The notes beneath the pieces were generated by a model, which had not been told where the DNA came from, ran no database searches, and worked only from the letters and a program-made list of their open reading frames with translations. This document shows, piece by piece, positions 30,200-59,086 of a stretch of DNA of 64,000 nucleotides. This stretch comes from an uncultured Dehalococcoidaceae bacterium (GTDB lineage Bacteria > Chloroflexota > Dehalococcoidia > UBA2979). Both the position numbers and the translations under genes were made by a program. The stretch is taken from assembly GCA_964565075.1 (NCBI GenBank), contig CAZMCK010000002.1, positions 27,603-91,602 on the forward strand, read 5' to 3'. Positions within the stretch are counted from its first letter, which is position 1; the number at the start of each line of letters is the position of its first letter.

Positions 30200-30613
30200 T
30201 CACGCAGGCACGAACACCGGGATCGGGTACTCGCCCTCGTCCTGCTCCTCGAACGACACGCGCACGCGCATCCCGCACTCGATGTCGGTGGTGGGGTTCT
30301 CCACGCCCATGATGTTCGTGAAGATGCGGAACCCCTCGTCCAGGTCCACGTACGCCACGGCGTACGCGCCGAGGTCCGAGAAGCTCGGGTTCCGGTTCTG
30401 CCGCACCACCGAGTACGTGTAGACGGTGCCCTCGCCTGCCGAGGTGCGCCACTCGAGGTCGTCGGTGCCGCACGCCGTGCAGTGCAGCCGGGGTGTGAAC
30501 ACCACCTCGGGGCAGGTGTTGCACGTCTGGTAGCGCAGCTTGCGCTCCTTGACGCCCTCCCAGTACGGCTCGGTGTTCGGCTCGGGGAATCGTGGCTGGG
30601 GCCGGTTCGGCAT
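30200..30613 (-). CDS. DUF35 OB-fold / Zn-ribbon protein (thiolase-partner)
   Basis: 137 aa with a CxxC...CxxC zinc ribbon (CNTCPE..CTACG) followed by an OB-fold. Co-operonic with the SCP-x thiolase. Confidence 0.8.
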   Translation of the reverse strand: MPNRPQPRFPEPNTEPYWEGVKERKLRYQTCNTCPEVVFTPRLHCTACGTDDLEWRTSAGEGTVYTYSVVRQNRNPSFSDLGAYAVAYVDLDEGFRIFTNIMGVENPTTDIECGMRVRVSFEEQDEGEYPIPVFVPA

Positions 30614-30655
30614 TGCTGTACTCCGTTCGTGTCGTTCGTTGTGTGGGCGTCCGCG

Positions 30656-31858
30656 CTAGTCGCGCGCGAGGATGACGGTGCCGCCGGAGTGTGACCCGCC
30701 CAGCGTGCCGCCGTTGCCGTGCGCTACGGCCAGGCTTGCACCCTCCACCTGCGAGGTGGACTCGCCACGCAGCTGCCGCACCGACTCGAGCAGCAGGAAC
30801 AGCCCTCGCATGCCCGGGTGGTTCGAGGACAGCCCGCCGCCGTCCGTGTTGAGTGTCGGCCTGAGCCCGCTGTCGAAGCGCAGCCGGCCGCCCTGCACGA
30901 AGTCGCCGATTTCGCCCTTGCCGCAGAACCCGAGGTCCTCGATGCACGTCGCCGTGGTGATCGAGAACGAGTCGTAGATCATCGCGATGTCGATCTCTTC
31001 AGCCGTGACGCCTGCCTGGGCGTAGGCGATCGGCGCGCTCTGCGCGCCGGCGGTGGTGGTGATATCGCCGCCGTTCTCGCGGTACTTCGTCGCCTCGCCG
31101 GTGCCGAGGATCCAGACGGGCGGCTTTGCGATGTCCTGCGCCACCTCGGGCGAGACGATGACGAGCGCCCCGCCGCCGTCGCTGACCATGCAGCATTCGA
31201 GGAGGTGCAGCGGGTCGGCGATGACCCGCGAGTCGAGCACGTCCTCGATGGTGATCTCGCTGACGGGGTGGACGGCGCCGAACTCGAGGTCGTTCATCGC
31301 CTGCACGGCCTCGGGGTTACGCATCGCGTGGGCGCGGGTAACCACGGAAAGCTCCGCGAAGGCCTCCTCGGGAGTGCCGTACTCGTGCATGTGCCGCATC
31401 TTCACCATGGCGTAGCCGGAGATCAGCGTGAGGCCGTAGGGGTCCTCCATGTTGCCCTGCCAGTTGGCGGGCCCCTGCCCGGTCATGCCGCCGGTGCCGA
31501 TGGCGCGCCGGTCGGAGTGCGACGTCGAGCCGTAGCTGAGCACCGCGACGTTGCAGGCGCCCGCGGCGATGTCGCGCAGGGCGTGCGCGGTCTGGAACTC
31601 GAACGCCGACCCGCCGACCTGCGTGGTGTCGGTGACGGTGGGCTTGATGCCCAGGTACGCGGCCATGCCGAGGCCGCCGCCACCCTCGCCCTCGTCGCAG
31701 TCGTAGAGGCCGTCGACGTCGGACCAGTCGAGGCCGGCGTCGGCGAGTGCCGCGCGGATCGACTCGACCTTGATCTGCATCGCACTCACGCCGGGCGCGA
31801 CGCGCAGGGGGTATTCGTGGATGCCGGCGATCGCCGCCAGCCGGCTCTGGGTGGCCAT
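30656..31858 (-). CDS. thiolase-like SCP-x / lipid-transfer-protein family enzyme
   Basis: Internal ATG (MATQSRLAAI..) of ORF 30656..31936, 7 nt after GAAGGAG. Thiolase-fold motifs. Confidence 0.8.
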   Translation of the reverse strand: MATQSRLAAIAGIHEYPLRVAPGVSAMQIKVESIRAALADAGLDWSDVDGLYDCDEGEGGGGLGMAAYLGIKPTVTDTTQVGGSAFEFQTAHALRDIAAGACNVAVLSYGSTSHSDRRAIGTGGMTGQGPANWQGNMEDPYGLTLISGYAMVKMRHMHEYGTPEEAFAELSVVTRAHAMRNPEAVQAMNDLEFGAVHPVSEITIEDVLDSRVIADPLHLLECCMVSDGGGALVIVSPEVAQDIAKPPVWILGTGEATKYRENGGDITTTAGAQSAPIAYAQAGVTAEEIDIAMIYDSFSITTATCIEDLGFCGKGEIGDFVQGGRLRFDSGLRPTLNTDGGGLSSNHPGMRGLFLLLESVRQLRGESTSQVEGASLAVAHGNGGTLGGSHSGGTVILARD

Positions 31859-31957
31859 GGGTGACTCCTTCGGCGGCGCCGCGGTGCCTGCGGCGCGTTG
31901 CACGCGCACTAGAGCACTCGTGCGCGAGCGCGTCAACGCCGCGAAGCAGGAGTCGCG

Positions 31958-42239: not shown

Positions 42240-42644
42240 TCAGGTCCGCGCGTCGATGCGGTCCATCTCGCCGGGCCACTCGAGGAGCCGCTCGTCGGCG
42301 GTCAGCAGCCGGCAGTCGTCGAGCGTGAGCGCCGTGGCGGCGATGATCCGGTCGGCGGGGTCGCCGTGCATGTCGGGGATCTCGCCCGCGAGCGTGGCGA
42401 TCTCAGCGGTCACCCCGACCTCTCCCAGGCCGGTGGCGCGCAGGCCCGCTCGCCAGCCCAGCACGTCGCGCGTCACCCCCACGCGGCCCTTGCGCTGCAG
42501 CATCGCGACTTCCCAGAACGTAATGGTTGAGACCGCGGCCTCGCCGTCCGGCCAGGCCCGATCGAGCAATGCGCGAGCCCGCCGCCCCAGGTCACGGGTG
42601 TCGAGATGCATCCAGACCAGCACATGGGTATCGAGCAGGATCAC
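42240..42644 (-). CDS. vapC: PIN-domain toxin (VapC-like)
   Basis: 134 aa starting MILLDTHVLVW, PIN fold. Confidence 0.8.
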   Translation of the reverse strand: MILLDTHVLVWMHLDTRDLGRRARALLDRAWPDGEAAVSTITFWEVAMLQRKGRVGVTRDVLGWRAGLRATGLGEVGVTAEIATLAGEIPDMHGDPADRIIAATALTLDDCRLLTADERLLEWPGEMDRIDART

Positions 42645-42653
42645 GGGCGCCGG

Positions 42654-45371: not shown

Positions 45372-46649
45372 CTAGCCGAACGCGCCAGCCTCGCGCAGCG
45401 AGGCGATCTCCTCCGGTGTGAGGCCGTGCTCCGCCAGTACCTCGTCGGTGTGGCCCCCGAGGGGCGGCGACGGCCGGTCCGTGCCCGTCGGAGCGTTCGT
45501 CATGCGCAGGATCGGGCCGACCAGCTGTTCGGGGCCCGTGAGGGGGTGGTCGATGTCCACCATGTAGCCCATCGCCTGCACCTGCGGGTCTTCCGACATC
45601 TCCTCGGGGAAGTTCACCTTGGTTGCCGGCGCCCCCTGCGCGTCGAGGAGCTCGATCCACTCGTCCATGGTCTTGGTGCGGTACAGCTGCCTGACGCGCT
45701 CCTGGAACGCCTGCGCCTTCGCCTCCCACTCCGGGTCGAGGGCGTCGAAGTCCGGGTCCTCCATGGGATCCTCGCCGGTCAGTCCCAGCGCCTCGCGGAT
45801 CTGCGCCTGGTTGCGAGGGGTGAGCGCACCGACGACGATCGCGCCGTCCTGCACCACGTAGGTGCCGTAGTACGTCAGGAACGCCGTCGCGATCGCGCGC
45901 TGGCCCTCGTGGATGTCCATCAGCTCCTGGTAGTTGGCGCCTGCCTGCTGCGCGGCGGTGAGGGCCTCCATCATCGGGTCCCGCGTGATTGCGTCCTGCA
46001 CGGGCACTCGCCCGACGGAGGCGCCGAGCAGCGACAGCGCCGAGTTGAGCAGCGAGGTCTGGATGAACTCGCCCTGCCCCGTCAGCTCGCGGCGGAACAG
46101 CGCGGCGCACACGCCCATCGCCATTGCCAGTCCCGTGCTCATGTCGCCGATCGCGATCGACATCATCTGCGGCGCGCCGTGCTCGTCGAGCTTGTGGTTG
46201 TTCGCCATCAGGCCCGAGTAGCCCTGCGAGACCACGTCGGAGCCGGAGCGCTCGGCGCTCGGCCCCTCGGTGCCGAAGCCGGTGCTGTCGACGTAGACGA
46301 GGTCCGGGCGGAACTGCCGCAGCGTGTCGTAGTCCACCTTCAGGCGCTTCGAGACGCCGGGGCGGGCGTTGATGATGAAGACGTCGTAGTCCTTGATGAT
46401 GCGGTGCACCAGCCCCTGCGCGTCGGGGCTCTGGAGGTTGAGCACCAGCCCCCGCTTCCCGCGGTTCACGACGTGGAAGAACTTCGACTCGTTCGGGACG
46501 ACGGCGCCCAGGATGCGGGTGCTGTCGCCGTCCGGTGACTCGACCTTGAGGACGTCGGCCCCGAGGTCGGCGAGCATCATCCCGCCGTACGGCGCCGCCA
46601 GGATCTGTGACACCTCGAACACCTTGATGCCTTCAAGTGGACCACCCAC
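45372..46649 (-). CDS. CoA-transferase family III (CaiB/BaiF) protein, single-domain
   Basis: ORF 45372..46832. The start is placed at the GTG for V62 (8 nt after GGGGGG), since a strong hairpin upstream (46672..46704) must precede the gene. N-terminal GPLEGIKVFEVSQILAAPYGGMMLADLGADVLKVE. Confidence 0.8.
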   Translation of the reverse strand: MGGPLEGIKVFEVSQILAAPYGGMMLADLGADVLKVESPDGDSTRILGAVVPNESKFFHVVNRGKRGLVLNLQSPDAQGLVHRIIKDYDVFIINARPGVSKRLKVDYDTLRQFRPDLVYVDSTGFGTEGPSAERSGSDVVSQGYSGLMANNHKLDEHGAPQMMSIAIGDMSTGLAMAMGVCAALFRRELTGQGEFIQTSLLNSALSLLGASVGRVPVQDAITRDPMMEALTAAQQAGANYQELMDIHEGQRAIATAFLTYYGTYVVQDGAIVVGALTPRNQAQIREALGLTGEDPMEDPDFDALDPEWEAKAQAFQERVRQLYRTKTMDEWIELLDAQGAPATKVNFPEEMSEDPQVQAMGYMVDIDHPLTGPEQLVGPILRMTNAPTGTDRPSPPLGGHTDEVLAEHGLTPEEIASLREAGAFG

Positions 46650-46671
46650 GATGCGCACCCCCCGGATTGCA

Positions 46672-46704
46672 AGCGGGGCGGGTGCTTGAGCACCCGCCCC
46701 GTCG
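46672..46704. terminator. 13-bp-stem hairpin after the rhodanese gene
   Basis: GCGGGGCGGGTGC-TTGA-GCACCCGCCCCG(C). Confidence 0.5.
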
Positions 46705-46729
46705 AGCGTGTGGCTTCGGCCGTATCGTA

Positions 46730-47908
46730 CTAGGACTCGATGGGCGTGTCTGTGCGGTTGCCCCACTCGGTCCAGGAGCCATCGTAGACCTTCACGTTCT
46801 CGTAGCCGAGCAGATCGCTCAGCACGAACCACGTGTGGGTCGCACGCACGGCCGTCTGGCAGAGCGTGTAGATGGTCTTGCCGCCCACAACGCCCTCGCC
46901 CTCGTAGAGCTCGCGGAGCTCATCGGCGGGGAGGAACGTGCCGTCCTCGGCCAGCGCGCGGCCCCAGTCGACGTTGACCGACTCGGGGATGTGGCCGCCG
47001 CGGTCAGCACGGACGTCACGCCCGGCGTACTCCTCGGCCGACCTGGCGTCGCAGACCAGCGACGAGGGGTCCTCGATCTGATCCACGATCTCCTGCCAGC
47101 CGGCGATGATCGCCTCGTTCGGAGCCGCGCTGAACGCGTACTCCGCAGCCGTGGGCGACGGCACGTCGGTGCTCACCTCGCGGCCCTCTGACTGCCAGAG
47201 CGGGAAGTCGCCGTCGAGCAGCCGCACATCCGCGTGCCCGTAGACCGCGAGCACCCACACGGCGCGCGAAGCCCAGATCGAGCCCCTGGCGTCGTAGAAG
47301 ACCAGCGTGTGGTCGGGCGTCACGCCGAATGATGCGAGCGATGCCGCCACTTCCTCGGCGGGCGGGATCAGGCCCGCGACGCCGTCGATCTCCTTCTGGA
47401 AGACCGCACCGGCCTGCATCCGGACCGCGCCCGGGATGTGGCCCTCGCCGTACTGTTCCTCGTTGCGGAGGTCGAACAGCAGCACCCTGTCGTTGTCGAG
47501 GTTGTCCTCGATCCACTGGGTGGTCACGAGGCGGCTCGTGTTCGCGTAGCCCCGGTCCTCGAGGCCCGTAGCCTGGGCGACCCCGGCGTCGTCCGCGTCA
47601 CCCTCCTCGGAGGTGGTGGCGGCGGTGTCGTCCGCGTCGTCGTCCTCCTCGGTGGCGGCGGCGGTGTCATCCGCGTCGTCGTCCTCCTCGGTGGCGGCGG
47701 CCGTGTCGGTGGCGTCGTCGGAGTCGTCGGTGGCCGCGGCCTGCTGCGTGGCGGGCGTCGCCTGCGTGGTCGTCGCCGCGTCGTCGTCATCGTCGTCGCC
47801 GCACGCGATGAGCAGCGCCGAGGAGGCGATCACCAGCAGCGCAAGCAGCGCGGCACCGCGTCCGAGCAGGCCCCAGGCGGGCCTCGTTCGTACTTCTGTT
47901 GCCATCAT
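46730..47908 (-). CDS. secreted two-domain rhodanese (thiosulfate/3-mercaptopyruvate sulfurtransferase) lipoprotein
   Basis: 392 aa with lipobox LLIACG, an acidic linker containing a tandem TAAATEEDDDADD repeat, and two rhodanese domains with the catalytic Cys (CQTAVRA). Confidence 0.8.
   Translation of the reverse strand: MMATEVRTRPAWGLLGRGAALLALLVIASSALLIACGDDDDDDAATTTQATPATQQAAATDDSDDATDTAAATEEDDDADDTAAATEEDDDADDTAATTSEEGDADDAGVAQATGLEDRGYANTSRLVTTQWIEDNLDNDRVLLFDLRNEEQYGEGHIPGAVRMQAGAVFQKEIDGVAGLIPPAEEVAASLASFGVTPDHTLVFYDARGSIWASRAVWVLAVYGHADVRLLDGDFPLWQSEGREVSTDVPSPTAAEYAFSAAPNEAIIAGWQEIVDQIEDPSSLVCDARSAEEYAGRDVRADRGGHIPESVNVDWGRALAEDGTFLPADELRELYEGEGVVGGKTIYTLCQTAVRATHTWFVLSDLLGYENVKVYDGSWTEWGNRTDTPIES
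47620..47700. repeat. roughly 39-bp tandem direct repeat (x2) inside the rhodanese gene
   Basis: A GTCGTCGTCCTCCTCGGTGGCGGCGGC(G/C)GTGTC unit repeated on the + strand, encoding the duplicated acidic linker TAAATEEDDDADD. Confidence 0.6.
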
Positions 47909-47965
47909 GCTTCCCTTCGGGCCGGGACGCGTCCGCGCGCCGGCACTATCGAGGGCGGTGCGGGG

Positions 47966-48223
47966 CTAGCCCGCCGCGCCCGCCTCCGCGTTGAAGATGC
48001 GGATTTCCCACTCGCCGGCAGCCCGCTCGGCGATCTCGCAGCCGTAGCCGCGCTTCATCGCCTCGGGCGGGATCGTCGACAGTGCGGGCGGGTGGTCCGT
48101 CCACACGCGCAGCTCCGGCACGCCGGGCTGCACCTCGTCGAGCTCCCGGTTGGTGCGCAGCATGGGGTACGGGCAGATCTCGCCGCGCACGTCCAGGACT
48201 GGCGCTTCGCTCTGATCGGTCAT
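47966..48223 (-). CDS. tusA: TusA-family sulfurtransferase
   Basis: 85 aa with the CPYP motif (LDVRGEICPYPMLRT). Confidence 0.8.
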   Translation of the reverse strand: MTDQSEAPVLDVRGEICPYPMLRTNRELDEVQPGVPELRVWTDHPPALSTIPPEAMKRGYGCEIAERAAGEWEIRIFNAEAGAAG

Positions 48224-48242
48224 GGAGTCTCCTCCTTGCTCC

Positions 48243-48500
48243 CTATTCAGTGGCCGCCACCGGGCGTGCGCCCGGCGACAGCGTCATCTCGCGCACGCCC
48301 TCGGCGGGCGGCTCGAGGCGGCATCGCACGCCGCGCTCGGCTGCCGCGGGCAGCACGTACGTGGCGACGACGTCGAGATCGGTGACGATCCGCACCGCCG
48401 TTCCCTCGGCGGCCTGCTCGACAGCGGCGTGCGCGGCCTGCATCTGCTCCGGCGGCGGCTTGCCGCGCAGGTCCAGCACCTCGGTGGTCTCGTTGGTCAT
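48243..48500 (-). CDS. TusA-like / DUF2249-type small protein lacking the CPxP cysteine
   Basis: 85-aa C-terminal part of ORF 48243..49628 (MTNETTEVLDLRGKPPPEQM..). ATGA coupling with the YeeE/YedE gene. Confidence 0.5.
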   Translation of the reverse strand: MTNETTEVLDLRGKPPPEQMQAAHAAVEQAAEGTAVRIVTDLDVVATYVLPAAAERGVRCRLEPPAEGVREMTLSPGARPVAATE

Positions 48501-49789
48501 GGGAACCGCCGGATGAACGCGGTGCCGCCGTACGCGCCGATCGCCAGCGCGATGGCGTAGATCCAGCCGTTGAGCGCGAGCGACGGGATCGCCGAGAAGA
48601 ACGCGCCGATGGTGCAGCCGAGGCCGAGCCCCGCGCCGTAGCCCATGATCAACCCGCCGCCGAGCGACTGGATGTAGCGACGCGGCCCGCGCGGCACGCG
48701 CAGCCGGAACTCGCGCGCCAGCAGTGCGGCGGTGAAGGCTCCGGCGATGATGCCGGCGTTGAGCATGAACGCGTCGGTGAACCACGTCCCCTCGACGAAG
48801 CGGGGCACGCAGCCGGGGATGTCGTTGATGCCGTTGAGCTCGCCCACGCCGGCGCCGATGTTGTTCGCGAAGTCCGTCGACCAGCGCGTGAGCTCGCCGA
48901 CGACGCCGAGCGGGCGGTAGCGGATGAAGATCAGGACGTTGACCGCCGCCAGCGCGATGCCGCCGACAAGCGGCGTCCACTCGGCGCGGAAGATCTTGTG
49001 TGCGAGCGCTCCGAGGGTGGTGTCGGCGCCGGGCGCGGCCCCTGCGGTGGCGGTGCCCGGGATGACCGGAAGCGTGAAGTTCATCCCCGCGAACGCGCGG
49101 CGCTCCCACCACGAGACGGCGGCCCACGCCAGGCCAAGCAGCACGAACGTCGCCACGACAGCGCCCGTGTAGTTCATGTCCGTGGGCAGCCAGGAGAGGC
49201 GGTCCATGCTGATCTGGTTGTCCCACCACCAGTTCCAGGTGCTGGCCATCGCGTAGAGCCCCACGAGGACGCCGAAGATGGCGACCCATGACCCGAGGTA
49301 GCCCTCGCCCATGCGGTAGAGCGTGCCGCTCACGCAGCCGCCGGAGAGCACCATGCCGAACCCGAACATGAGGCCGCCGAGCACCGTGGCGATGCCGAGC
49401 GGCAGGATGTGCGCGTCGGACGGCAGCACGCCGCTGCCGGGGTTGGGGATGACGGTCGCCATGATCATCGCGAAGCCGGCCGTGCCGATGGCGAGGCCGG
49501 CGATGATGCCGCGCATCATCCGTCCCTGCTTCATGAGGAACAGGTCGCGGAATCCCGCGACGAAGCAGAACCGGCTGCGCTGGCAGATTACCCCGAAGGC
49601 GACGCCGGACACCCAGAACACCGGCCACGCGGCGTCGGTGCGCAGCGCGATCACGTACACGACCACGAGGCCGGCGACGGCGAGGATGCCGACGCCCGTC
49701 GAGCGGTCGATCGTGCGGACGGTGTCCATGGACATGGGGAGGGCGCTCATCCCGGTAATGTTCACATAGTTGAGTCGGCTACTCAACAT
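48497..49789 (-). CDS. YeeE/YedE-family (TsuA-like) sulfur-compound transporter, duplicated-domain
   Basis: C-terminal 417-430 aa of ORF 48497..50767 with two YeeE/YedE repeats carrying conserved Cys (SGGCVSG, GLGCTIG). Start may be ATG 49789 or 49750. Confidence 0.8.
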   Translation of the reverse strand: MLSSRLNYVNITGMSALPMSMDTVRTIDRSTGVGILAVAGLVVVYVIALRTDAAWPVFWVSGVAFGVICQRSRFCFVAGFRDLFLMKQGRMMRGIIAGLAIGTAGFAMIMATVIPNPGSGVLPSDAHILPLGIATVLGGLMFGFGMVLSGGCVSGTLYRMGEGYLGSWVAIFGVLVGLYAMASTWNWWWDNQISMDRLSWLPTDMNYTGAVVATFVLLGLAWAAVSWWERRAFAGMNFTLPVIPGTATAGAAPGADTTLGALAHKIFRAEWTPLVGGIALAAVNVLIFIRYRPLGVVGELTRWSTDFANNIGAGVGELNGINDIPGCVPRFVEGTWFTDAFMLNAGIIAGAFTAALLAREFRLRVPRGPRRYIQSLGGGLIMGYGAGLGLGCTIGAFFSAIPSLALNGWIYAIALAIGAYGGTAFIRRFP

Positions 49790-49894
49790 CTCTCCGTTAT
49801 GGCCGCACTGCGCGTGTGATGCGGTCCCGCGCTCTGTATCATCGCGACCGCAGGCGACAGCGCCAGACGGCCAACGGCCAGAGAGGGAGGAGAC

Positions 49895-50716
49895 ATGCCT
49901 CCGAACACAGAAACCGTCCTGTACGAGAAGCGCGACCGCGTCGCGTGGGTGACACTCAACCGCCCCGAAGCGATGAACGCGCTCAACCCCGAGATCAGCC
50001 TCGGCATCAAGGAAGCGATCGACGAGGCGACCGCGGACGACGACGTCCTCGTCGTCGTGCTGATCGGCAACGGCGGCCGCGCGTTCTGCGCCGGCATGGA
50101 CCTCAAGTGGCGCGCCCAGGAGGACGCTGCCGGCGGTACCGACATGTCGGGTGACGATGTCGGGCCGGGCACCGGCCTGGACGCCGTCGGCGCATGCCCG
50201 AAGCCCGTGATCGCGGCCATCGACGGCTACGCACTGGCGGGCGGCATGCAACTCAGCAACCGCTGCGACATGCGCATCGCGACGCGGAAGTCGCGGTTCG
50301 GGATGCCCGAGGCGCGCCGCGCCCTGGCGGCCGTGGGCGTCGAGGACACGCCGGAGCTGTTCACGACGCCGGGCGAGGCGGCGTGGATCCTGCTCACCGG
50401 CGGCCACATGACCGCCGAGCGTGCCTATCAGAACGGCCTTGTGCAGGTCCTGGTCGAGGACCGCGATGAGCTGATGCAGGCGGCCGAAGACCTCGCGGGC
50501 GAGATCAAGCTCTGCGCGCCCCTCGCGATCCGCGCCATCAAGGAGACGCTGCGCACCAAGCGCAACATGCCCGCCCCGAATCCCGGCCAGACCGAGCTCG
50601 ACAAGCTCGCCGAGCTGACCTTCGAGGTGAAGGAGATCAACAACAACAGCGAGGACCGGCTCGAGGGACCGCTGGCATTCGCCGAGAAGCGCGACCCGAA
50701 CTGGAAGAACCGCTAG
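49895..50716 (+). CDS. enoyl-CoA hydratase/isomerase family protein (crotonase paralog 3)
   Basis: 273 aa with motifs VTLNRPEAMNAL, GNGGRAFCAGMDL and IDGYALAGG, and the shared C-terminus EGPLAFAEKR. Confidence 0.85.
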   Translation: MPPNTETVLYEKRDRVAWVTLNRPEAMNALNPEISLGIKEAIDEATADDDVLVVVLIGNGGRAFCAGMDLKWRAQEDAAGGTDMSGDDVGPGTGLDAVGACPKPVIAAIDGYALAGGMQLSNRCDMRIATRKSRFGMPEARRALAAVGVEDTPELFTTPGEAAWILLTGGHMTAERAYQNGLVQVLVEDRDELMQAAEDLAGEIKLCAPLAIRAIKETLRTKRNMPAPNPGQTELDKLAELTFEVKEINNNSEDRLEGPLAFAEKRDPNWKNR

Positions 50717-50826
50717 CCGGGAGCATCGAGGAGAGAGAGCCACCAGGTCACCCGCGTGCAGCACCACTGCATGCGGCCGACGATCGGACCCCGCCGTGGC
50801 TCGCCACGCCGGGGGCGCGAGCGAGA

Positions 50827-50849
50827 GGAGCCCTCCACACGGAGGGCTT
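50827..50849 (+). terminator. 9-bp-stem hairpin after crotonase paralog 3
   Basis: GAGCCCTCC-ACAC-GGAGGGCTT. Confidence 0.4.
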
Positions 50850-50877
50850 CTTCGCGACTGCCCACTGAGCAGCGTCG

Positions 50878-52266
50878 ATGACGGTCACGCACGCCGGCAT
50901 GTCCGAGGTCGCCGAGCTCATCGCCGAGCGTGCGGTGGTCGCGGCGCGGCGCGGCCTGTTCTACGGCTGGTACATCGTCGCGGCGGGCGCGGGCACCAAC
51001 TTCCTCGTCATCGGCCTCGTCACGTTCAGCTTCGGCGTCTTCATCGGCCCGATGCGCGACGAGCTGGGGTGGAGCGTCGCGGCGATCGCGGCCGGCCAGT
51101 CGCTGCGCAGCTTCGAGCAGGGGCTGCTCGCGCCGGTCACGGGCGTGATGATCGACCGGCTCGGGCCGCGCAAGATGGCGATCACCGGGATCGTCTTCAC
51201 GACCATCGGGCTGGTCGTCTTCTCGCAGGCCCGCACGCTCGAGATCTACTACCTGGCGAGCCTGGTACTGGCCTTCGGGCAGAGCCTCGGCTCGCTGCAG
51301 CCGTTCTCCGCGGCGTTGATGTTCTGGTTCCAGCGCAAGCGCGGACAGGCGATGGGGCTGCTCAACACCGGCAACGGGGCGGGGCACCTCATGGCCCCGG
51401 TCGTCGCGCTGCTCGTCCTCTGGGTGGGATGGCGCTCGACGCTGCTGTTGGCCGCCGTGGTCGTCTTCCTGCTCGGCATCCCCCTCGCGATGGTGCTTCG
51501 CGACCGCCCCGAGCCCTACGGCTACACGGTCGACGGCGATGCGCCCGAACCGGGCGCCGGTGAGCCGTCCGTCGCCCCCGACGCCACGGGGATGTCCGTG
51601 GGCGAGGGCCTGCGCACGCCGACGTTCTACCTGCTGTCGGTGTCCTCGGCGCTGGCCGGGGGCCTGATCGTCTCGTGGATCGTCCACCAGATCCCGCACC
51701 TGGAGAGCGTCGGGTTCTCGACGGCCGGTGCCGCGACGATCGTCGGCATCTACGGCGTGTGCCAGCTCGGGCTCCGCCCGATCGTCGGGTGGCTGGGCGA
51801 CCGCTTCGGGCGCGTCCGCCTCTACTCGTTCGCGTTCGTGTGCCAGGGCCTCGGGATGATCATCTTCGCGAACCTCACCGCGGACCGGCTGTGGCTCCTG
51901 CCGCTCTACTACGCGCTGTTCGCGTTCGGGAGCTCGGCCTGGATCGTGCTCCAACTGGCGCTGGTCGCCGACTACTTCGGGCCGAGGCGGTACGCGACGC
52001 TGCGCGGGTTTGCATCGACGCTCAACATGCCCGTCGGGATCGTCTCGCCGTTCGTGGCGGGCTACATCTTCGACCGCACCGGGAGCTACGTGGAGATCTT
52101 CATGGTCTTCGGGGTGCTCGCGATGATGGGCTCGATCATGATCCTGATGATCCGCCGCCCGTTCTGGGCCGACTTCGTGCGTGAGCGCGAGGAGGCGGCC
52201 GCCGCCGCCCGCGCCGCCGAGGCAGCAAGGGCGTACGCCACGCGCATACAATCGCCTCCCCGGTAA
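50878..52266 (+). CDS. MFS transporter (OFA-like subfamily)
   Basis: 462 aa with 12 TM helices. Paralog of the 43090..44391 gene. Confidence 0.8.
   Translation: MTVTHAGMSEVAELIAERAVVAARRGLFYGWYIVAAGAGTNFLVIGLVTFSFGVFIGPMRDELGWSVAAIAAGQSLRSFEQGLLAPVTGVMIDRLGPRKMAITGIVFTTIGLVVFSQARTLEIYYLASLVLAFGQSLGSLQPFSAALMFWFQRKRGQAMGLLNTGNGAGHLMAPVVALLVLWVGWRSTLLLAAVVVFLLGIPLAMVLRDRPEPYGYTVDGDAPEPGAGEPSVAPDATGMSVGEGLRTPTFYLLSVSSALAGGLIVSWIVHQIPHLESVGFSTAGAATIVGIYGVCQLGLRPIVGWLGDRFGRVRLYSFAFVCQGLGMIIFANLTADRLWLLPLYYALFAFGSSAWIVLQLALVADYFGPRRYATLRGFASTLNMPVGIVSPFVAGYIFDRTGSYVEIFMVFGVLAMMGSIMILMIRRPFWADFVREREEAAAAARAAEAARAYATRIQSPPR
52247..52252 (+). promoter_or_regulatory. TACAATCG -10-like box 42 nt upstream of CoA-transferase gene 1
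   Basis: The same TACAATCG octamer recurs at 7559 and 54760, about 40 nt ahead of start codons. Confidence 0.4.
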
Positions 52267-52293
52267 CGGGAAGAGCATCAGCGGGAGGGACTC

Positions 52294-54726
52294 GTGCCTG
52301 ACACCGCACTGGACGGTCTCCGCATCATCGAGCTCGCCGAAGGGGTGGCCGGCCCCTACTGCGGCAAGCTCTTCGCCGACCTCGGCGCCGACGTCATCAA
52401 GGTCGAGCCGCCCGAGGGCGACCGCACGCGCCGGGAGGGCCCGTTCAAGGACGGGGTACCCAACCCGGAGGGCAGCGGGCTCTTCCTCTACCTCAACACC
52501 AACAAGCGGGGCGTCACCGCCGACGTGACCACGGACGAGGGCCGCGAGGCCCTCCTCGGCCTGCTCGCCGGCGCTGACGCGCTCGTCACCGACATGCACG
52601 AGGACGACCTGCGCGCACTCGGGCTCGACTACGCCGACCTGCGCGAGCGCTTTCCAGCCCTCGTCTTCTCCTCGCTCACGCCGTTCGGCCGTGGCGGCCC
52701 GCACGGCGCGTACCGGGGCAATGCGTTCCTCGCGTACCACGCCAGCGGGATGAGCTGGGAGACGCCGACGAACCAGGTGCGCGACCCGGCCACCCAGCCA
52801 CCCCTCGCGCCCGGGAACCCGCAGGCCGACTACCTCACGGGCTCCACCGGGGCCGCCGCGACGCTGGCCGCGATCTTCCAGCGCGAGTCGACCGGCCGTG
52901 GGCAGCTCGTCGACATCTCCGGGCAGGAGGCGAACGCCAACCACATCCGCACGACGATCTCATCCGTGATCCACACGCCCGACCTCGTTCCGGGTCGCGA
53001 GAAGAGCAACTTCGACTTCCTCGTGCCGTGTAGTGACGGTTATGTCTTCCTCACCCCGTACAACTTCGACCACTGGTGGGAGCGCCTCCAGCACCTCATG
53101 GGCGACCCGGAGTGGGCGAAGAGCGAGGCCTTCGCCACCACGGCCGACCGCGCCCTCAACTGCGACGCGATCGAGCCGCTCGTGGCCCTCTGGTCGGCGG
53201 AGCACACCCGCGCGGAGCTGTACCAGATGTCGCTCGACATCGGGATCCCGTGCTTCCCGGTGTACTCGCCCGCCGAGATGATGGAGTCGGCGCAGTTCGC
53301 GTTCCGCGACTTCCTCGAGTCCGTCGAGGACCCCGAGGCGGGCTCGTTCGTCCGCCCGGGCCCGGCAGCGCTGCTCTCGCGGACGCCGTACCGGCAGGAC
53401 AGGCGCGCGCCGCGTCTCGGCGAGCACAACGCCGAGTTGCTCGCGCAGCCCGCCGCCGAGCCCTCGCCCGCGCCGCCCGGCGACCAGCGACCCGAGTACC
53501 GCAGGGGCACGGGCAACCTGCCGCTGAGCGGGGTGCGCGTGGTCGACTTCGGGTGGATCCTCTCCGTCCCGCACTCGACGGCCTGGCTGGGCACACTTGG
53601 CGCCGAGGTGATCCGCGTCGAGTCCGAGCAGCGCCTCGACCTGCTGCGCGCCATGGGCATGCAGCGCGGCTCGAGCGGGATTCACGGGCTCAACCGCTCG
53701 GGGCCGTTCAACGGCCTCAACTACAGCAAGCACGGCGTGACGCTGAACCTCCAGACCGACCGCGGCAAGGAGCTCGCGAAGGAGCTGATCAGCCGCGCCG
53801 ACATCGTCACGATGAACTACGCGGCCGGGGTGGCCGAGCGACTCGGCCTCGGCTACGAGGACCTCACGGCCATCAAGCCCGACCTCATCATGCTGTCGGG
53901 CTCCCCCCTCGGGCAGACCGGGCCGGAGGCGCACTCGACCGGCTGGGGCCCGACGACGCTCGCCTACACGATGCTGCCGTATATCACCGGCTACCGCGGC
54001 GGGACGCCCAGCTCGATGGGCGGCTCCTACCCGGACTTCGTCGTCGGCGTGCACATGGCGTTCGCCATGATGAGCGCGCTGCGCCACCGTGAGCGCACCG
54101 GCCACGGCCAGCACATCGATGTCGCGATGGGCGAGACCGTCGTGGCGATGACGCCCGAGCCGCTCCTGCAGTGGACGATGCTCGGCGTCGACCCGGTGAT
54201 GCTCGGCAACCGCGATCCCGGGTGCGCGCCGCAGGGCGCCTACCCGTCGGCCGGCGAGGACCGCTGGGTCGCCGTCTCCGTCGAGGACGACGCGATGTGG
54301 GCGCGGCTGCGAGGCGCCCTCGGCGACCCCGCGTGGGCGCGGGACCCCGGGCTCGAGACCCTCGAGGGCCGGCACGCGCGCCACGACGACATCGACCGTG
54401 AGCTCGGCGCCTGGACCGCCCAGCGCACTGCGTACGAGGCCGCTGACGCACTCCAGCGCGCCGGCGTGGCGGCCACGGCCGTGCTCGACGCGGCGGGGCT
54501 CCTCGACGACCCGCAGCTTCGCCACCGCGGCTTCTTCGTGGACATCGACCATCCCGAGATCGGGGTGACCGCGTCCGCGGGCATCCCGGTGCGCTTCAGC
54601 GAGACGCAGCTCCACTACGGTTCGGCGCCGCTGCTGGGCGAGCACAACCGCGAGGTGTTCACGGAGCTCGTCGGCCTCGAGGCGGCGGAGTTCGAGCGGC
54701 TTGCCGCGGAGGACGTGATCGTCTAG
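52294..54726 (+). CDS. double-domain CoA-transferase family III (CaiB/BaiF) fusion protein, copy 1
   Basis: 810 aa. GTG after a GGGAGGGA ribosome-binding site. Two complete CaiB-type modules in tandem (N-termini LRIIELAEGVAGPYCGKLFADLGADVIKVE and VRVVDFGWILSVPHSTAWLGTLGAEVIRVE). Confidence 0.85.
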   Translation: MPDTALDGLRIIELAEGVAGPYCGKLFADLGADVIKVEPPEGDRTRREGPFKDGVPNPEGSGLFLYLNTNKRGVTADVTTDEGREALLGLLAGADALVTDMHEDDLRALGLDYADLRERFPALVFSSLTPFGRGGPHGAYRGNAFLAYHASGMSWETPTNQVRDPATQPPLAPGNPQADYLTGSTGAAATLAAIFQRESTGRGQLVDISGQEANANHIRTTISSVIHTPDLVPGREKSNFDFLVPCSDGYVFLTPYNFDHWWERLQHLMGDPEWAKSEAFATTADRALNCDAIEPLVALWSAEHTRAELYQMSLDIGIPCFPVYSPAEMMESAQFAFRDFLESVEDPEAGSFVRPGPAALLSRTPYRQDRRAPRLGEHNAELLAQPAAEPSPAPPGDQRPEYRRGTGNLPLSGVRVVDFGWILSVPHSTAWLGTLGAEVIRVESEQRLDLLRAMGMQRGSSGIHGLNRSGPFNGLNYSKHGVTLNLQTDRGKELAKELISRADIVTMNYAAGVAERLGLGYEDLTAIKPDLIMLSGSPLGQTGPEAHSTGWGPTTLAYTMLPYITGYRGGTPSSMGGSYPDFVVGVHMAFAMMSALRHRERTGHGQHIDVAMGETVVAMTPEPLLQWTMLGVDPVMLGNRDPGCAPQGAYPSAGEDRWVAVSVEDDAMWARLRGALGDPAWARDPGLETLEGRHARHDDIDRELGAWTAQRTAYEAADALQRAGVAATAVLDAAGLLDDPQLRHRGFFVDIDHPEIGVTASAGIPVRFSETQLHYGSAPLLGEHNREVFTELVGLEAAEFERLAAEDVIV

Positions 54727-54759
54727 CCGCCGATCGTGCAGGGGCCTCTCCGACCCGCC

Positions 54760-54765
54760 TACAAT
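54760..54765 (+). promoter_or_regulatory. TACAATCG -10-like box 46 nt upstream of CoA-transferase gene 2
   Basis: Duplicated together with the GGGAGGGACTCGTG start context. Confidence 0.4.
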
Positions 54766-54810
54766 CGGTTCCCCCAACACCGGGAGGGAGCAACACGGCG
54801 GGAGGGACTC

Positions 54811-57243
54811 GTGCCTGACACCGCACTCAACGATCTCCGCATCATCGAACTCGCCGAGGGGGTGGCCGGCCCCTACTGCGGCAAGCTCTTCGCCGACCTC
54901 GGCGCCGACGTCATCAAGGTCGAGCCGCCCGGAGGCGACCGCGCCCGCCGGGCGGGCCCGTTCAAGGACGGCGAACCGAACCCCGAGGGCAGCGGGCTCT
55001 TCCTCTACCTCAACACCAATAAACGCAGCGTCACCGCCGACCTCGACACCGACGAGGGCCGCGACGCCGTGCTCAGCCTCCTCGCGGGCGCCGACGTGCT
55101 GGTCACCGACCGGTACGAGGACGACCTGCGCGCGCTCGGGCTCGACTACGCCGACCTGCGCGAGCGTTTCCCCGCGCTCGTCTTCACGTCGCTGACCCCG
55201 TTCGGGCGAGGCGGACCGCACGGGTCGTACCGGGGGAACGCGTTCACCGTGTACCACTCGAGCGGCCTCGGCTGGGAGACGCCTGCGCAGCAGGTGCGCG
55301 ACCCGGCCAACCAGCCGCCCCTCGCACCCGGCAACCCGCAGGCCGACTACTTCACGGGCGTGACCGGAGCGGCGGCGACGATGGGCGCGCTCTACCAGCG
55401 CGAGTCCTCGGGCCGCGGGCAACTCGTCGATATTTCGGGGCAGGAAGCGAACGCCAACCACGTGCGGCTGACGATCTCCTCGGTCGTACACACGCCCGAT
55501 CTCGTCCCGGGGCGAGCGAAGGGCAACTTCGACTTCCTCGTGCCGGCCAGGGACGGTTATGTCTTCCTCACCCCGTACAACCTCGACCACTGGTGGGAGC
55601 GCTTCCAGTCGATCATGGGCAACCCCGACTGGGCGGCGAGCGACGCCTTCCTGACGGCCGAGGACCGCGGCCTCAACTGCGACGCGATCGAGCCGCTGGT
55701 CAATATGTGGTCGACGCAGCACACACGGGCCGAGCTGTACCAGATGGCGCTCGACATCGGCATCCCGTGCTTCCCGGTCTACTCCCCCGCCGAGATGATG
55801 GAGTCGGCCCAGTTCCAGTCCCGCGGGTTCCTCGAGACCGTCGAGGACCCCGAGGCCGGTTCGTTCGTGCGGCCCGGGCCGGCTGCAGTGTTCTCCGCGA
55901 CCCCGTCCAGCCAGGACGGCCGCGGGCCTCGCCTCGGCGAGCACAGCGCCGAGCTGCTCTCACAGCCCTCCTCGGAGGCGGCTCCCGCACCGTCCGGCGA
56001 CCGCCGCCCTGCGCACCGCAAGGCGGCCGGCGACCTGCCGCTGAGCGGCGTGCGCGTCGCCGACTTCGGGTGGATCCTCTCCGTCCCGCACTCGACGGCC
56101 TGGCTGGGCGCCCTCGGCGCCGAGGTGATCCGCATCGAGTCGGAGCAGCGCCTGGACCTGCTGCGCACGATGGGCCTGACTCGCGGCTCCGGCGGCATCC
56201 CCGGCATCGAGCGGTCCGGCAACTACAACGGGCTCAACTACTCGAAGCAGGGCGTGACGCTCAACATCCAGACGGACCGCGGCAAGGAGCTCGCGAAGGA
56301 GCTCGTGAGCCGCAGCGACATCGTCACCATGAACTTCGCGGCCGGGGTCGCCGAGCGCCTCGGCCTCGGCTATGAGGACCTCAAGGCGGTGAAGCCCGAC
56401 GTGATCATGATGTCCGGCTCGCCCCTCGGGCAGACCGGCCCGGAGAGCCACTCGACGGGCTGGGGTCCGACGACGCTTGCCTACACCACGCTGCCCTACG
56501 TCACGGGCTACGAGGGCGGCACGCCGAGCTCGATGGGCGGCGCCTACCCCGACTTCGCCATCGGCGTGCACATGGCGTTCGCGATGATGAGCGCGCTGCA
56601 CTACCGCGACCGCACGGGCCACGGCCAGCACATCGACGTCGCGATGGGCGAGACGGTCGTGGCGATGACGCCCGAGCCACTCCTCGAGTGGACGATGCTC
56701 GGCGCCGACCCGCAGCGGCGCGGGAACCGCGACCCGAACCGCGCGCCGCAGGGCGTGTACCCCTCGGCGGGCGAGGACCGCTGGGTGGCGATCTCGGTGG
56801 AGGACGACGCCGCGTGGGCAGCGCTCCGGAGCGCCCTCGGCGACCCCGCGTGGGCACAGGACGCCGCACTCGCGGCGCTCGACGGCCGGCTTGCGCGGCA
56901 CGACGACATCGACCGCGAGCTCGCCGCCTGGACCGGCGCGCGCACCTCCCACGAGGCGATGCACCTGCTCCAGGCCGTGGGCGTTGCGGCTGTGGCCGTC
57001 CTCGACGGCCCCGAACTCGTCGCCGACCCGCAGTTGAGGCACCGCGGCTTCTTCGTCGACATCGACCACCCGGAGCTGGGCGTGACGGCGTCGGCGGGCA
57101 TCCCGCTCTCGTTCAGCGAGACGCAACTCCACTATGGCTCCGCGCCGCTGCTCGGCCAGCACAACCGCGAGGTCTTCACTGAGCTGGTCGGCCTTGAGCC
57201 CGAGGAGTTCGAGCAACTCGTGCGGGACTCGGTTATCGTCTGA
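54811..57243 (+). CDS. double-domain CoA-transferase family III fusion protein, copy 2 (tandem duplicate, ~88% aa identity)
   Basis: Internal GTG (VPDTALNDLRIIELAEG..) of ORF 54736..57243 with the identical GGGAGGGACTC GTG context. 810 aa. Confidence 0.85.
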   Translation: MPDTALNDLRIIELAEGVAGPYCGKLFADLGADVIKVEPPGGDRARRAGPFKDGEPNPEGSGLFLYLNTNKRSVTADLDTDEGRDAVLSLLAGADVLVTDRYEDDLRALGLDYADLRERFPALVFTSLTPFGRGGPHGSYRGNAFTVYHSSGLGWETPAQQVRDPANQPPLAPGNPQADYFTGVTGAAATMGALYQRESSGRGQLVDISGQEANANHVRLTISSVVHTPDLVPGRAKGNFDFLVPARDGYVFLTPYNLDHWWERFQSIMGNPDWAASDAFLTAEDRGLNCDAIEPLVNMWSTQHTRAELYQMALDIGIPCFPVYSPAEMMESAQFQSRGFLETVEDPEAGSFVRPGPAAVFSATPSSQDGRGPRLGEHSAELLSQPSSEAAPAPSGDRRPAHRKAAGDLPLSGVRVADFGWILSVPHSTAWLGALGAEVIRIESEQRLDLLRTMGLTRGSGGIPGIERSGNYNGLNYSKQGVTLNIQTDRGKELAKELVSRSDIVTMNFAAGVAERLGLGYEDLKAVKPDVIMMSGSPLGQTGPESHSTGWGPTTLAYTTLPYVTGYEGGTPSSMGGAYPDFAIGVHMAFAMMSALHYRDRTGHGQHIDVAMGETVVAMTPEPLLEWTMLGADPQRRGNRDPNRAPQGVYPSAGEDRWVAISVEDDAAWAALRSALGDPAWAQDAALAALDGRLARHDDIDRELAAWTGARTSHEAMHLLQAVGVAAVAVLDGPELVADPQLRHRGFFVDIDHPELGVTASAGIPLSFSETQLHYGSAPLLGQHNREVFTELVGLEPEEFEQLVRDSVIV

Positions 57244-57315
57244 CGGGTCCGCTGCCTGGCGGGCGAACACGGTTCGGACGCGGCAGCCTGCGGGGCTGCG
57301 CGTGCATGCGCGCTC

Positions 57316-57331
57316 GGCAGCCGAAGCTGCC
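57316..57331 (+). terminator. short GC hairpin after the CoA-transferase pair
   Basis: GGCAGC-CGAA-GCTGCC. Confidence 0.35.
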
Positions 57332-57352
57332 TCAGGGAGGGCCGGGAACGGT

Positions 57353-58210
57353 ATGGAGTACCACCACATCCTCGTCGACCGGGAAGACGGCGTCGTGACG
57401 ATCACGATGAACCAGCCCGAGCATCTCAACCCGTGGCTGATCCCGATGATGGAAGAGATGATGGTCGAACTCGACCTCATCGCCGTGAACCCCGACGACA
57501 AGGTGCTCGTCATCACCGGGGCGGGGCGGGCCTTCTCATCCGGCGGCGATGTCTCGTCGATGGGCGGCATCGACCACGCAGACCCGCACTTCATGAAGTG
57601 GCTGCCCGACCACAAGCGCGGCCTCCTCACGTACCCGACCATGACGGCCGAGGAACGGATGCAGAACCAGACGTTCAGCGGCACACCCATCCACAAGAAG
57701 GTGTTCGCCCTCGACAAGCCGACGATCGCCGCCGTCAACGGCGTCGCGGCCGGAGCCGGCGCGGACCTCGCGTTCACGTGCGACCTCCGCATCGCCTCGG
57801 ACACCGCACGCTTCATCGAGGTCTACGTGCGTCGCGCGTTCACCCCGCTCGACGGCGGCGCGTTCTGGGCGCCGTATCACCTCCCGCACGCCAAGGCAAT
57901 GGAGATGCTGCTGACCGGCGACCCGATGAGCGCCGAGGAGGCGAAGCACTTCGGCCTCGTCAACGACGTCGTGCCGCGCGACGAGTTGATGCCGCGCACG
58001 ATGGAGCTCGCGAAGCGCCTCGCGAAGGGGCCGACGGTCGCCATGCAGCTCACGAAGCACATGGTCCGCGAGATCTTCATGCGCGAGGGCTACGAGCACA
58101 TGTGGGACTTGGCGAAGCAGGCCACTCCGCATTCGATGTCGTCCCGGGACGCCGACGAGGGTGTGCAGTCGTTCCTCGAGAAGCGGCCGCCGGAGTTCAA
58201 GGGCTACTGA
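57353..58210 (+). CDS. enoyl-CoA hydratase/isomerase family protein (crotonase paralog 4)
   Basis: Internal ATG (MEYHHILVDREDGVVTITMNQPEHLN..) of ORF 57134..58210. Motifs TGAGRAFSSGGDV and VNGVAAGAG. Confidence 0.85.
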   Translation: MEYHHILVDREDGVVTITMNQPEHLNPWLIPMMEEMMVELDLIAVNPDDKVLVITGAGRAFSSGGDVSSMGGIDHADPHFMKWLPDHKRGLLTYPTMTAEERMQNQTFSGTPIHKKVFALDKPTIAAVNGVAAGAGADLAFTCDLRIASDTARFIEVYVRRAFTPLDGGAFWAPYHLPHAKAMEMLLTGDPMSAEEAKHFGLVNDVVPRDELMPRTMELAKRLAKGPTVAMQLTKHMVREIFMREGYEHMWDLAKQATPHSMSSRDADEGVQSFLEKRPPEFKGY

Positions 58211-58226
58211 CGACCGGACCAAGCGC

Positions 58227-58700
58227 CTATGGCGCGGCTCCGTTGCTCTCGTCAGAGGCGACCACGGAGTCGCGCCACTCGTCGATCTCGCCGGGATCGA
58301 GGCGTGTCACTCCGGGTATCTCGTCGAAGTGCCTGTCGGCTGAGACGATCCACTCGAGCCCGAGTCGGCGCATGACAGCGACGTGGACGAGGTCCCGCGA
58401 GTTGATGCGCTGATGCTCTTCGGCTAGTGCGATGGCCGCCTCGACGTCCTGCGCAAACACCGGCTCTACCCGGCTGCGCATCAGAGTGGCGAACCCCTCC
58501 AGTACTTCACGCCCGGCCGCCCACTGCTCCGGCGAGAGGTATCGATGGAGCAACTCTTGCAACACCTCGACGCTCGTCATGAACGAGCGGGGATGCAACG
58601 CGGCCAGCCCCAGCACCTCGCGAGCGGGCGCACGATAGCGATGCGCGCCGCCCGCCGCGTACATCGGGACGTTCGCGTCAATGAAGGTCGGGGGGCTCAT
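58227..58700 (-). CDS. vapC: PIN-domain toxin VapC
   Basis: 157-aa C-terminal part of ORF 58227..58952 (MSPPTFIDANVPMYAAGG...), PIN fold. Confidence 0.7.
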   Translation of the reverse strand: MSPPTFIDANVPMYAAGGAHRYRAPAREVLGLAALHPRSFMTSVEVLQELLHRYLSPEQWAAGREVLEGFATLMRSRVEPVFAQDVEAAIALAEEHQRINSRDLVHVAVMRRLGLEWIVSADRHFDEIPGVTRLDPGEIDEWRDSVVASDESNGAAP

Positions 58701-58929
58701 AGCGCTCTTCAAGCTCGTTGCACAGGTCCGCCGGATCGTCCGGCACATCCAGCTCAACGCTGGTGATGCGGCGCACCGCCGAGAGGCGCCGCTCCAGCGT
58801 GATCGTCTCCCACGCGTCGTCGATGAGGCGACGCACCAGTTCGGAGACGGGGACGTCCCGCTCCCTGGCGATCTCATCCAACCGCCGCCGACGCTCTTCG
58901 TCCAGTCGGACCTCGAGTCGAGAGACCAT
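58678..58929 (-). CDS. vapB: ribbon-helix-helix antitoxin VapB (CopG family)
   Basis: M12 of ORF 58678..58962 (MVSRLEVRLDEERRRRLDEIARERDVPVSELVRRLI), RHH fold. Overlaps the vapC start. Confidence 0.65.
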   Translation of the reverse strand: MVSRLEVRLDEERRRRLDEIARERDVPVSELVRRLIDDAWETITLERRLSAVRRITSVELDVPDDPADLCNELEERYEPPDLH

Positions 58930-59086
58930 GATGCCTCCTGTCCGGCACCCACCGTACGGCACGCCTCGTACGGCCTAGATTGTACGGCACGATCCGTACG
59001 GTATGCGATACCCGGATGAGCGCACCGGTCGATCTGCCATACTCGCGCACGGCCCAGGCAACGCGACGCAGGCCGAGGAGGACAAC

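Follow-up and report, generated by a model that had tools for sequence, protein, structure and literature searches.

Why would a bacterium keep, side by side, two genes that each encode a family III coenzyme A (CoA)-transferase of double length? In a 64,000-nucleotide stretch of DNA from an uncultured Dehalococcoidaceae bacterium (contig CAZMCK010000002.1; ~70% G+C; hereafter the window), two tandem paralogues, gene 1 and gene 2, each encode a chain of 810 amino acids (aa) and lie between a putative transporter gene and genes for enoyl-CoA hydratases. We consider it probable that both proteins are type III CoA-transferases with two domains each, which attach CoA to a carboxylic acid taken up by the cell, for the hydratases encoded on either side to process. 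The two-domain architecture, the catalytic aspartate of the C-terminal domain and the expansion into paralogues have already been published for this class of enzymes, of which gene 1 and gene 2 are uncharacterised members.

PF02515 (CoA_transf_3) is matched twice in each protein, each time over the full length of the model (E 1e-178 to 1e-186), and with scores of 618 and 594 bits (cut-off 23.3) the proteins belong to family III (CaiB/BaiF), each gene holding two complete fused modules, as an earlier note on this DNA had proposed. This architecture is widely distributed. It is collinear and ~800 aa long in 120 of the best 120 clusters at 90% identity, nearly all of them of ~770-915 aa and with a query coverage of 96-100%, the single shorter match being P0018 (724 aa, coverage 89%). 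Likewise, of the best 150 representatives at 50% identity that phmmer retrieved when run exhaustively against 1.84 billion sequences, ~140 are two-domain proteins with a length of ~800 aa, all with E <1e-115. Uninterrupted frames of 810 aa are also present in independent assemblies (loci L001-L007), the closest genomes being uncultured Dehalococcoidia/Chloroflexota metagenome-assembled genomes (MAGs), with OZ242017.1 at 96% identity, and a tblastn search of plasmids retrieved fused homologues, 31-35% identical and annotated only as 'CoA transferase', in Variovorax, Rhodococcus, Neorhizobium and Diaphorobacter. The two domains are joined by a Pro-rich linker of ~24 aa, poorly conserved in comparison with the domains themselves (mean conservation 0.19 vs 0.61-0.66). 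A tandem-domain architecture with a poorly conserved linker was described by Dong et al. (2018), who counted 2,401 two-domain homologues (PMC6006322), and the gene pair shares with the PtmU4 class of that study the tandem PF02515 domains in one chain, the weakly conserved linker and an invariant C-terminal Asp. The hosts of the PtmU4 class are Actinobacteria and Proteobacteria, whereas the present host belongs to the Dehalococcoidia. Large families of CaiB/BaiF paralogues, some with DddD as their best Swiss-Prot match, were reported in SAR202 Chloroflexi by Landry et al. (2017), and such expansions, to which the two-domain enzymes belong, are thought to let Chloroflexi of the SAR202 type oxidise recalcitrant organic acids without an ATP cost (PMC5395668). 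Two or three two-domain paralogues are also found adjacent to each other in other Dehalococcoidia and Actinomycetota MAGs (L015 4-7494, L009 6808-11950, L014 10001-17001), and local arrays of these CoA-transferases therefore appear to be common.

The two halves of each chain share only 26-30% identity and are, therefore, not two equivalent modules. The closest solved relative of the C-half is one chain of BbsEF, the succinyl-CoA:(R)-benzylsuccinate CoA-transferase (PDB 9fn0, 9fol), namely the catalytic chain 9fn0_B (E 6.5e-73, 36% identity). The N-half corresponds to the non-catalytic chain 9fn0_A (E 3e-40) and is slightly closer to a homodimeric CaiB/BaiF protein of Brucella, 4ed9 (E 2.6e-47). 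In BbsEF the two chains are separate polypeptides and the non-catalytic one carries a Tyr, whereas in the gene pair they are fused and the N-half keeps Asp179; a literature search found no paper describing the BbsEF structure. Unfused overlapping pairs, in the order N-like then C-like, occur in a Chloroflexota MAG (L012 4385-1901, minus strand) and on a plasmid of Rhodococcus qingshengii (NZ_CP147922.1 36788-39252; L026 5983-8447), where the two genes overlap by 4 nt within a cassette for two acyl-CoA dehydrogenases (ACADs), the two CoA-transferase subunits, two MaoC proteins, a thiolase, a DUF35 protein and a short-chain dehydrogenase/reductase (SDR), in that order, and thus among genes for ACADs, hydratases, a thiolase and an SDR. 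With the unfused N-like subunits the N-half shares 32-36% identity (32% for Rhodococcus), and with the C-like subunit of Rhodococcus, the sole C-like subunit aligned, 25%; the C-half is 37% identical to the latter and 26-32% identical to the N-like subunits. The Rhodococcus pair differs from the fused chain in consisting of two genes and in the His that replaces Asp in its N-like subunit. Furthermore, the order of the halves in the fused chain, the non-catalytic type followed by the catalytic one, is also that of the genes in the unfused pairs studied. Judged from these comparisons, each protein is a fusion of two unlike heterodimer subunits, an 'E-like' N-half and an 'F-like' catalytic C-half. 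The covalently linked dimer suggested in the earlier note holds as far as a fused double-domain chain is concerned, but not as a homodimer of equivalent halves, given their low mutual identity and their grouping with different subunits.

Family III protomers are ring-shaped and threaded through each other as an interlocked dimer. The AlphaFold2 model of the 810-aa chain, based on an 83-sequence alignment (pLDDT 94.3, predicted template modelling score 0.95), is predicted to be a single rigid body in which the two halves have a defined arrangement, and the structural modelling advised in the earlier note thus gave one unit which is modelled with confidence also across the linker. In a Foldseek search of the PDB only targets of ~400 aa were found, with query-normalised template modelling (TM) scores of <=0.48; the best was the catalytic chain of BbsEF, superposed on the C-half with a target-normalised TM score of 0.95 and a root-mean-square deviation of 1.6 A, followed by the non-catalytic chain, superposed on the N-half with 0.83-0.84. 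Each half therefore superposes on the ring-shaped protomers of the family (TM 0.95 and 0.84). The copy of the PDB that was searched contains no solved structure of a two-domain member. The model is compatible with an interlocked dimer formed within a single chain.

In this family, CoA transfer runs through anhydride and thioester intermediates bound to an Asp residue that opens the central long helix. In order to map this residue, as had been proposed, each module was aligned with enzymes of known structure. D581 of the C-half aligns with D178 of BbsEF chain B, named as the CoA-adduct residue in the title of PDB 9fol, and with Asp169 of YfdW/Frc, and for D179 of the N-half the counterparts are D175 in Rv3272 and the catalytic Asp in 4ed9. 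Both halves of both paralogues keep their Asp, and neither half is devoid of catalytic residues, as would be the degenerate remnant that the earlier note had allowed for. Beyond the pair, the two positions behave very differently. D581 is invariant in 122/122 close homologues and present in 143 of the 145 sequences of a diverse alignment (144 representatives plus gene 1), the two exceptions having a different domain order and being misaligned. Position 179 is M, D, E, S or T in the close set and, among the same 145 diverse sequences, E in 36, D in 23, Y in 17, S in 15, A in 12, Q in 10, H in 9 and W in 7. The C-terminal site is, therefore, the conserved catalytic centre, and the N-terminal nucleophile is, on this alignment, dispensable in most lineages. 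This agrees with the conservation of the C-terminal-domain Asp in two-domain enzymes and with the 125- to 400-fold loss of activity in D430 mutants of PtmU4 (PMC6006322).

The Asp retained in the N-half sets the gene pair apart from the published account of the PtmU4 class, and its significance can be read in two ways. The N-half may be a catalytically dead scaffold in spite of Asp179, leaving a single active site per chain as in BbsEF and most relatives. The free replacement of position 179 described above speaks for such a scaffold, as do the N-like subunits that lack Asp at the equivalent position, where Gln or His is found in the unfused pairs and Tyr in chain A of BbsEF. Nevertheless, D179 is present in both paralogues and kept as Asp in every listed relative down to ~56% identity, with Asp or Glu in most down to ~45%, and the residues E38, G42, R46 and K71 of the nucleotide-binding motif of the N-half are nearly invariant, so that we regard a dead N-half as possible but on the whole doubtful. 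In the reading that we favour, Asp179 may form a second, non-equivalent active site in this clade, and the small domain of the N-half would close the active site around Asp581.

The retention of two copies raises the further question of whether they work together. Their proteins are 80% identical and 88% similar over a gap-free alignment; the 88% previously quoted as identity is thus the similarity. The longest open reading frame (ORF) of gene 2 begins at 54736, and its start was set at the GTG at 54811 because the GGGAGGGACTC Shine-Dalgarno context of gene 1 recurs in front of this codon and because the N-terminus VPDTAL is conserved in all orthologues. Identity is 83-96% for orthologues of copy 1 and 86-95% for those of copy 2, compared with 80-82% between the copies, and the duplication therefore predates the divergence of the related MAGs. 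With a dS of 0.45 and a dN/dS of 0.27 between gene 1 and gene 2 of the window, purifying selection acts on both copies. The two paralogue lineages have fixed different residues at 19 positions, among them S578A, V583A and V584I beside D581, and these differences near the catalytic residue fit a diverged specificity. In L003 (OZ244720.1), copy 1 (10001-12433) is a mosaic at the 19 diagnostic sites and intermediate in identity, with 86% to the copy-2 lineage and 83% to the copy-1 lineage, which suggests that partial gene conversion between the tandem copies may have occurred there.

One explanation for the retention of both copies is that the paralogues are subunits of a single gene 1-gene 2 hetero-oligomer, similar to a (BbsE-BbsF)2 tetramer. 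The tandem pair is indeed present in every related MAG locus examined, the selection just described acts on both copies, and the deposited BbsEF entries hold two copies of each chain type. However, each gene has its own ribosome-binding site (RBS) and conserved upstream element, many two-domain homologues are single genes (L023-L025), and the substitutions S578A, V583A and V584I are better explained by divergence in specificity. Consequently, an obligate partnership of this kind seems unlikely, and we hypothesize that the paralogues, an old and retained duplication, most likely differ in the substrates that they accept.

The duplication also included sequence upstream of the genes. The start context noticed earlier, TACAATCG...GGGAGGGACTCGTGCCTGACACCGCACT, does occur twice, at 52247-52321 and at 54760-54838, with the shorter string TACAATCG...GGGAGGGACTCGTG beginning at 52247 and 54760; the pattern TACAATCG-N25-50-GGGAGG is found exactly 2 times in the window, 0 being expected, and in the related loci fetched it lies solely upstream of orthologous genes. 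Copy 1 of the element begins inside the 3' end of the upstream major facilitator superfamily (MFS) transporter gene, the last ~20 nt of which it overlaps and the TAA stop of which (52264-52266) it contains, and since copy 2 carries a relic of this 3' end, the duplicated unit extended from the tail of the MFS gene through the leader and the CoA-transferase gene. Copy 1 is conserved upstream of gene-1 orthologues in L001, L002, L004, L005 and L007, and copy 2 upstream of gene-2 orthologues in L001, L002, L005 and L006. Across MAGs the conserved form is TACAATCG-CCTCCCC-(G/A)TAACG-...-GGGAGGGAC, and the non-coding copy 2 keeps the string TACAATCG...ATAACG...GGGAGGG. Conservation of the element where it does not encode protein suggests a regulatory role. 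Two GGGAGG(G) tracts farther downstream, the RBS being one of them, are complementary to the pyrimidine tract CCTCCCC of the element. A structured leader was considered and is unsupported, since the RNAalifold consensus of 12 element copies reaches only -4.4 kcal/mol with two weak helices; an Rfam scan of 49600-58400 (E<=1) gave chance-level matches to eukaryotic and archaeal snoRNAs and miRNAs only. Of the duplicated promoter that had been claimed, the duplicated upstream sequence is confirmed but a promoter is not: only a -10-like TACAAT is present, a scan for the sigma-70 consensus found no promoter-like site in the block, and terminator-like sites in the block do not exceed those of shuffled sequences. 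The most ambitious interpretation, to which we give little credence, would combine a working N-domain Asp in this clade, hence two non-equivalent CoA-transfer sites per chain and four per pair with a possible relay of CoA between donor, substrate and product of a single uncharacterised pathway, with a new cis-regulatory leader, the duplicated element, that would serve both genes.

The neighbouring genes point to the metabolic setting of the pair. As the earlier note had observed, an MFS transporter of the oxalate/formate antiporter (OFA)-like type lies upstream and a crotonase (enoyl-CoA hydratase, ECH) on either side, and the window holds in total four crotonases and a third, single-domain CaiB. 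A second MFS transporter is also encoded in the window. The comparison of genomes which had been recommended showed that the five-gene block ECH-MFS-gene 1-gene 2-ECH is kept in synteny at five loci of related Dehalococcoidia MAGs (L002-L006) and partly so in L001, L007 and L008; for the upstream crotonase synteny was recorded in L002-L005 and L007, and in L002-L006 orthologues of the downstream crotonase, 86-95% identical, directly follow gene 2. The best NCBIfam matches of the transporter both fall below threshold, SfMCT with 170 bits against a cut-off of 320 and the oxalate/formate antiporter with 109 against 335, all the matches of the upstream crotonase are below cut-off, and none of the crotonases, MFS transporter, ACAD and dehydrogenase has an NCBIfam match above cut-off. 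PDB sequence searches with both crotonases found generic enoyl-CoA hydratases only, those closest to the upstream one being of the EchA1/EchA19 type. The block is followed by a PIN-domain gene (minus strand), a Zn-dependent dehydrogenase, and ACAD, isochorismatase and SDR genes (all three on the minus strand), the ACAD and SDR lying 2-5 kb away on the strand opposite to the block; no thiolase or glycyl-radical enzyme is encoded nearby. More distant two-domain homologues are flanked by crotonases or ACADs as well (L011, with a crotonase on both sides, L022, L023 and L025).

On the basis of this context and of the homology with BbsEF, we hypothesize the following course of events for the gene pair. 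An acid would probably be imported by the adjacent MFS transporter, and the enzyme chain would fold as the intramolecular version of the interlocked dimer, with Asp581 of the C-half as the nucleophile which accepts from a donor thioester, presumably succinyl-CoA or another short acyl-CoA of central metabolism, first the acyl group and then CoA, and passes CoA to the free carboxylic acid. The resulting acyl-CoA would probably be hydrated or isomerised by the two flanking crotonases, and the overall step would amount to an ATP-free activation of the acid. Most of the characterised relatives matched (BbsEF, SUGCT, Frc/YfdW, Mct) act on dicarboxylates, with succinyl-CoA or formyl-CoA as donor in several cases, and by analogy a dicarboxylate acceptor is plausible. 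The dicarboxylic or aromatic acid put forward in the earlier note remains a guess, no gene of the block having reached an equivalog cut-off. Several observations weigh against the role that we propose. None of seven related NCBIfam equivalog models (among them formyl-CoA, succinate-glutarate, succinyl-CoA:mesaconate, oxalate and carnitine transferases, and mesaconyl-CoA isomerase) is matched at its cut-off, the best scores being 368 (cut-off 442), 358 (750), 356 (504) and 339 (700) bits; synteny with the MFS gene is seen only in close relatives, in which it is expected anyway; the surroundings of distant homologues differ, and in L024 they include no acyl-CoA genes; and DddD, which is also a lyase, and PtmU4, which forms thioacids, go beyond plain CoA transfer or do something else.

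This last point is the root of another explanation, according to which the gene pair performs a non-canonical reaction, either an elimination as in the lyase DddD or a transfer of sulfur to an acyl-CoA, yielding a thioacid, as in PtmU4, possibly tied to the sulfur-trafficking operon nearby. DddD, a DMSP CoA-transferase/lyase, and PtmU4, which produces a thiocarboxylic acid from an acyl-CoA, are the two characterised two-domain members named by Dong et al., and both deviate from plain transfer; DddD is reported to be an outgroup to the other two-domain enzymes (PMC6006322). The sulfur operon (45375-49750, minus strand) is divergent from the block and lies 145 bp upstream of it, with the order YeeE/YedE transporter, TusA, double rhodanese and single-domain CaiB, which is kept in L003-L005 and L007; a CoA-transferase among sulfur-trafficking genes recalls thioacid chemistry of the PtmU4 type. 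However, over 90% of the PtmU4 thioacid group have an acyl-CoA synthetase, a homologue of PtmA3, within two genes (PMC6006322), and no such synthetase lies that close to the pair, nor did the ORFs scanned across the window include an AMP-binding enzyme, the near neighbours of the pair being ECH, MFS, ECH and PIN genes. Compared by description and context with the PtmU4 class, the pair thus stands without an adjacent synthetase and does not form a 'thioacid cassette'. The context of ddd genes comprises the BCCT (betaine/choline/carnitine) transporter DddT, the dehydrogenases DddB and DddC and a LysR regulator. An operon of this type is described in PMC7174347, as is DddD itself, with ~820-830 aa and two CaiB-like domains, features by which the DddD of Marinomonas (UniProt A6W2K8) resembles our proteins; unlike DddD, the gene pair has no BCCT transporter and no genes of the dddB, dddC or dddR type in the block or its flanks. 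The operon context of BbsEF, with BbsG, BbsH, BbsCD, BbsAB and BssABC (PMC10818641), is likewise not found at the locus, where only crotonases adjoin the pair. In addition, sulfur genes are absent from the distant-homologue loci examined and the flanking hydratases fit a processing of the beta-oxidation type. A non-canonical chemistry is, therefore, quite improbable, and transfer of CoA to an imported acid is preferred. Finally, the concern voiced in the earlier note that a frameshift or sequencing error had joined two ordinary 400-aa genes, and equally that of a misassembly, to which the overlapping unfused pairs lend some substance since a one-base error could in principle fuse such a pair, is effectively refuted by an uninterrupted 810-aa frame present twice in the window and by its recurrence in independent assemblies and homologue clusters, together with a genuine, confidently modelled linker, and the fusion is real.

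Other parts of the window deserve mention. Of two genes for PIN-domain (VapC-like) proteins, one immediately follows the downstream crotonase and delimits the block; it is only 50-55% conserved between MAGs whose flanking genes are ~90% identical. Another tandem pair of paralogues encodes molybdopterin-binding large subunits of the xanthine dehydrogenase/carbon monoxide dehydrogenase family, preceded by an FAD-binding subunit and followed by a crotonase. Acyl-CoA catabolic genes are also gathered in the region 23343-31957, where a crotonase, a luciferase-like monooxygenase (SAR202 has an expanded set of such enzymes), a MaoC/FAS1-type dehydratase-region protein, a DUF3179 protein and an SCP-x-type thiolase-like protein form a set that resembles those for steroid-type side-chain degradation.

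Table. Positions of the CoA-transferase gene pair, its parts and other features of the window.
Feature	Position	Strand	Remarks
Gene 1, two-domain family III CoA-transferase	52294-54726	+	GTG start, 810 aa
Gene 1 N-domain	52294-53448	+	aa 1-385
Gene 1 linker		+	aa 386-408
Gene 1 C-domain	53518-54726	+	aa 409-810
Gene 1 D179 codon	52828-52830	+	
Gene 1 D581 codon	54034-54036	+	
Gene 2, tandem paralogue of gene 1	54811-57243	+	GTG start, 810 aa
Gene 2 D179 codon	55345-55347	+	
Gene 2 D581 codon	56551-56553	+	
Upstream element, copy 1	52247-52293	+	TACAATCG-CCTCCCC-GTAACGGG...GGGAGGGACTC
Upstream element, copy 2	54760-54810	+	Non-coding, carries relic of MFS 3' end
Crotonase/enoyl-CoA hydratase ECH_up	49895-50716	+	PF00378, E 8e-44; first gene of putative five-gene unit
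MFS transporter MFS_B, OFA/MCT-like	50878-52266	+	PF07690
Crotonase ECH_dn	57353-58210	+	285 aa, intact, insertion of ~25-30 aa in N-terminal part
Single-domain CaiB	45375-46919	-	
Double rhodanese	46730-47965	-	
TusA	47966-48283	-	
YeeE/YedE sulfur transporter	48497-~49750	-	PF04143
PIN-domain (VapC-like) gene	42240-42653	-	
PIN-domain (VapC-like) gene	58227-58952	-	End of block
FAD-binding subunit	3599-4594	+	
Molybdopterin-binding large subunit	5135-7423	+	
Molybdopterin-binding large subunit	7438-9897	+	
Crotonase	10513-11292		
Crotonase	23343-24128	-	
Luciferase-like monooxygenase	25127-26389		
MaoC/FAS1-type dehydratase-region protein	27238-27870	-	
DUF3179 protein	27905-29518	-	
SCP-x-type thiolase-like protein	30656-31957	-	

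Two-domain family III CoA-transferases are numerous, with thousands of sequences falling into at least ~140 clusters at 50% identity, and the present observation in one genome leaves current knowledge of them unchanged. Nevertheless, a conserved syntenic pair with genes for a transporter and hydratases beside it would be a sensible choice for biochemical study, and it lends itself to the question of whether the N-domain site is functional in those enzymes, a minority, that keep its Asp.

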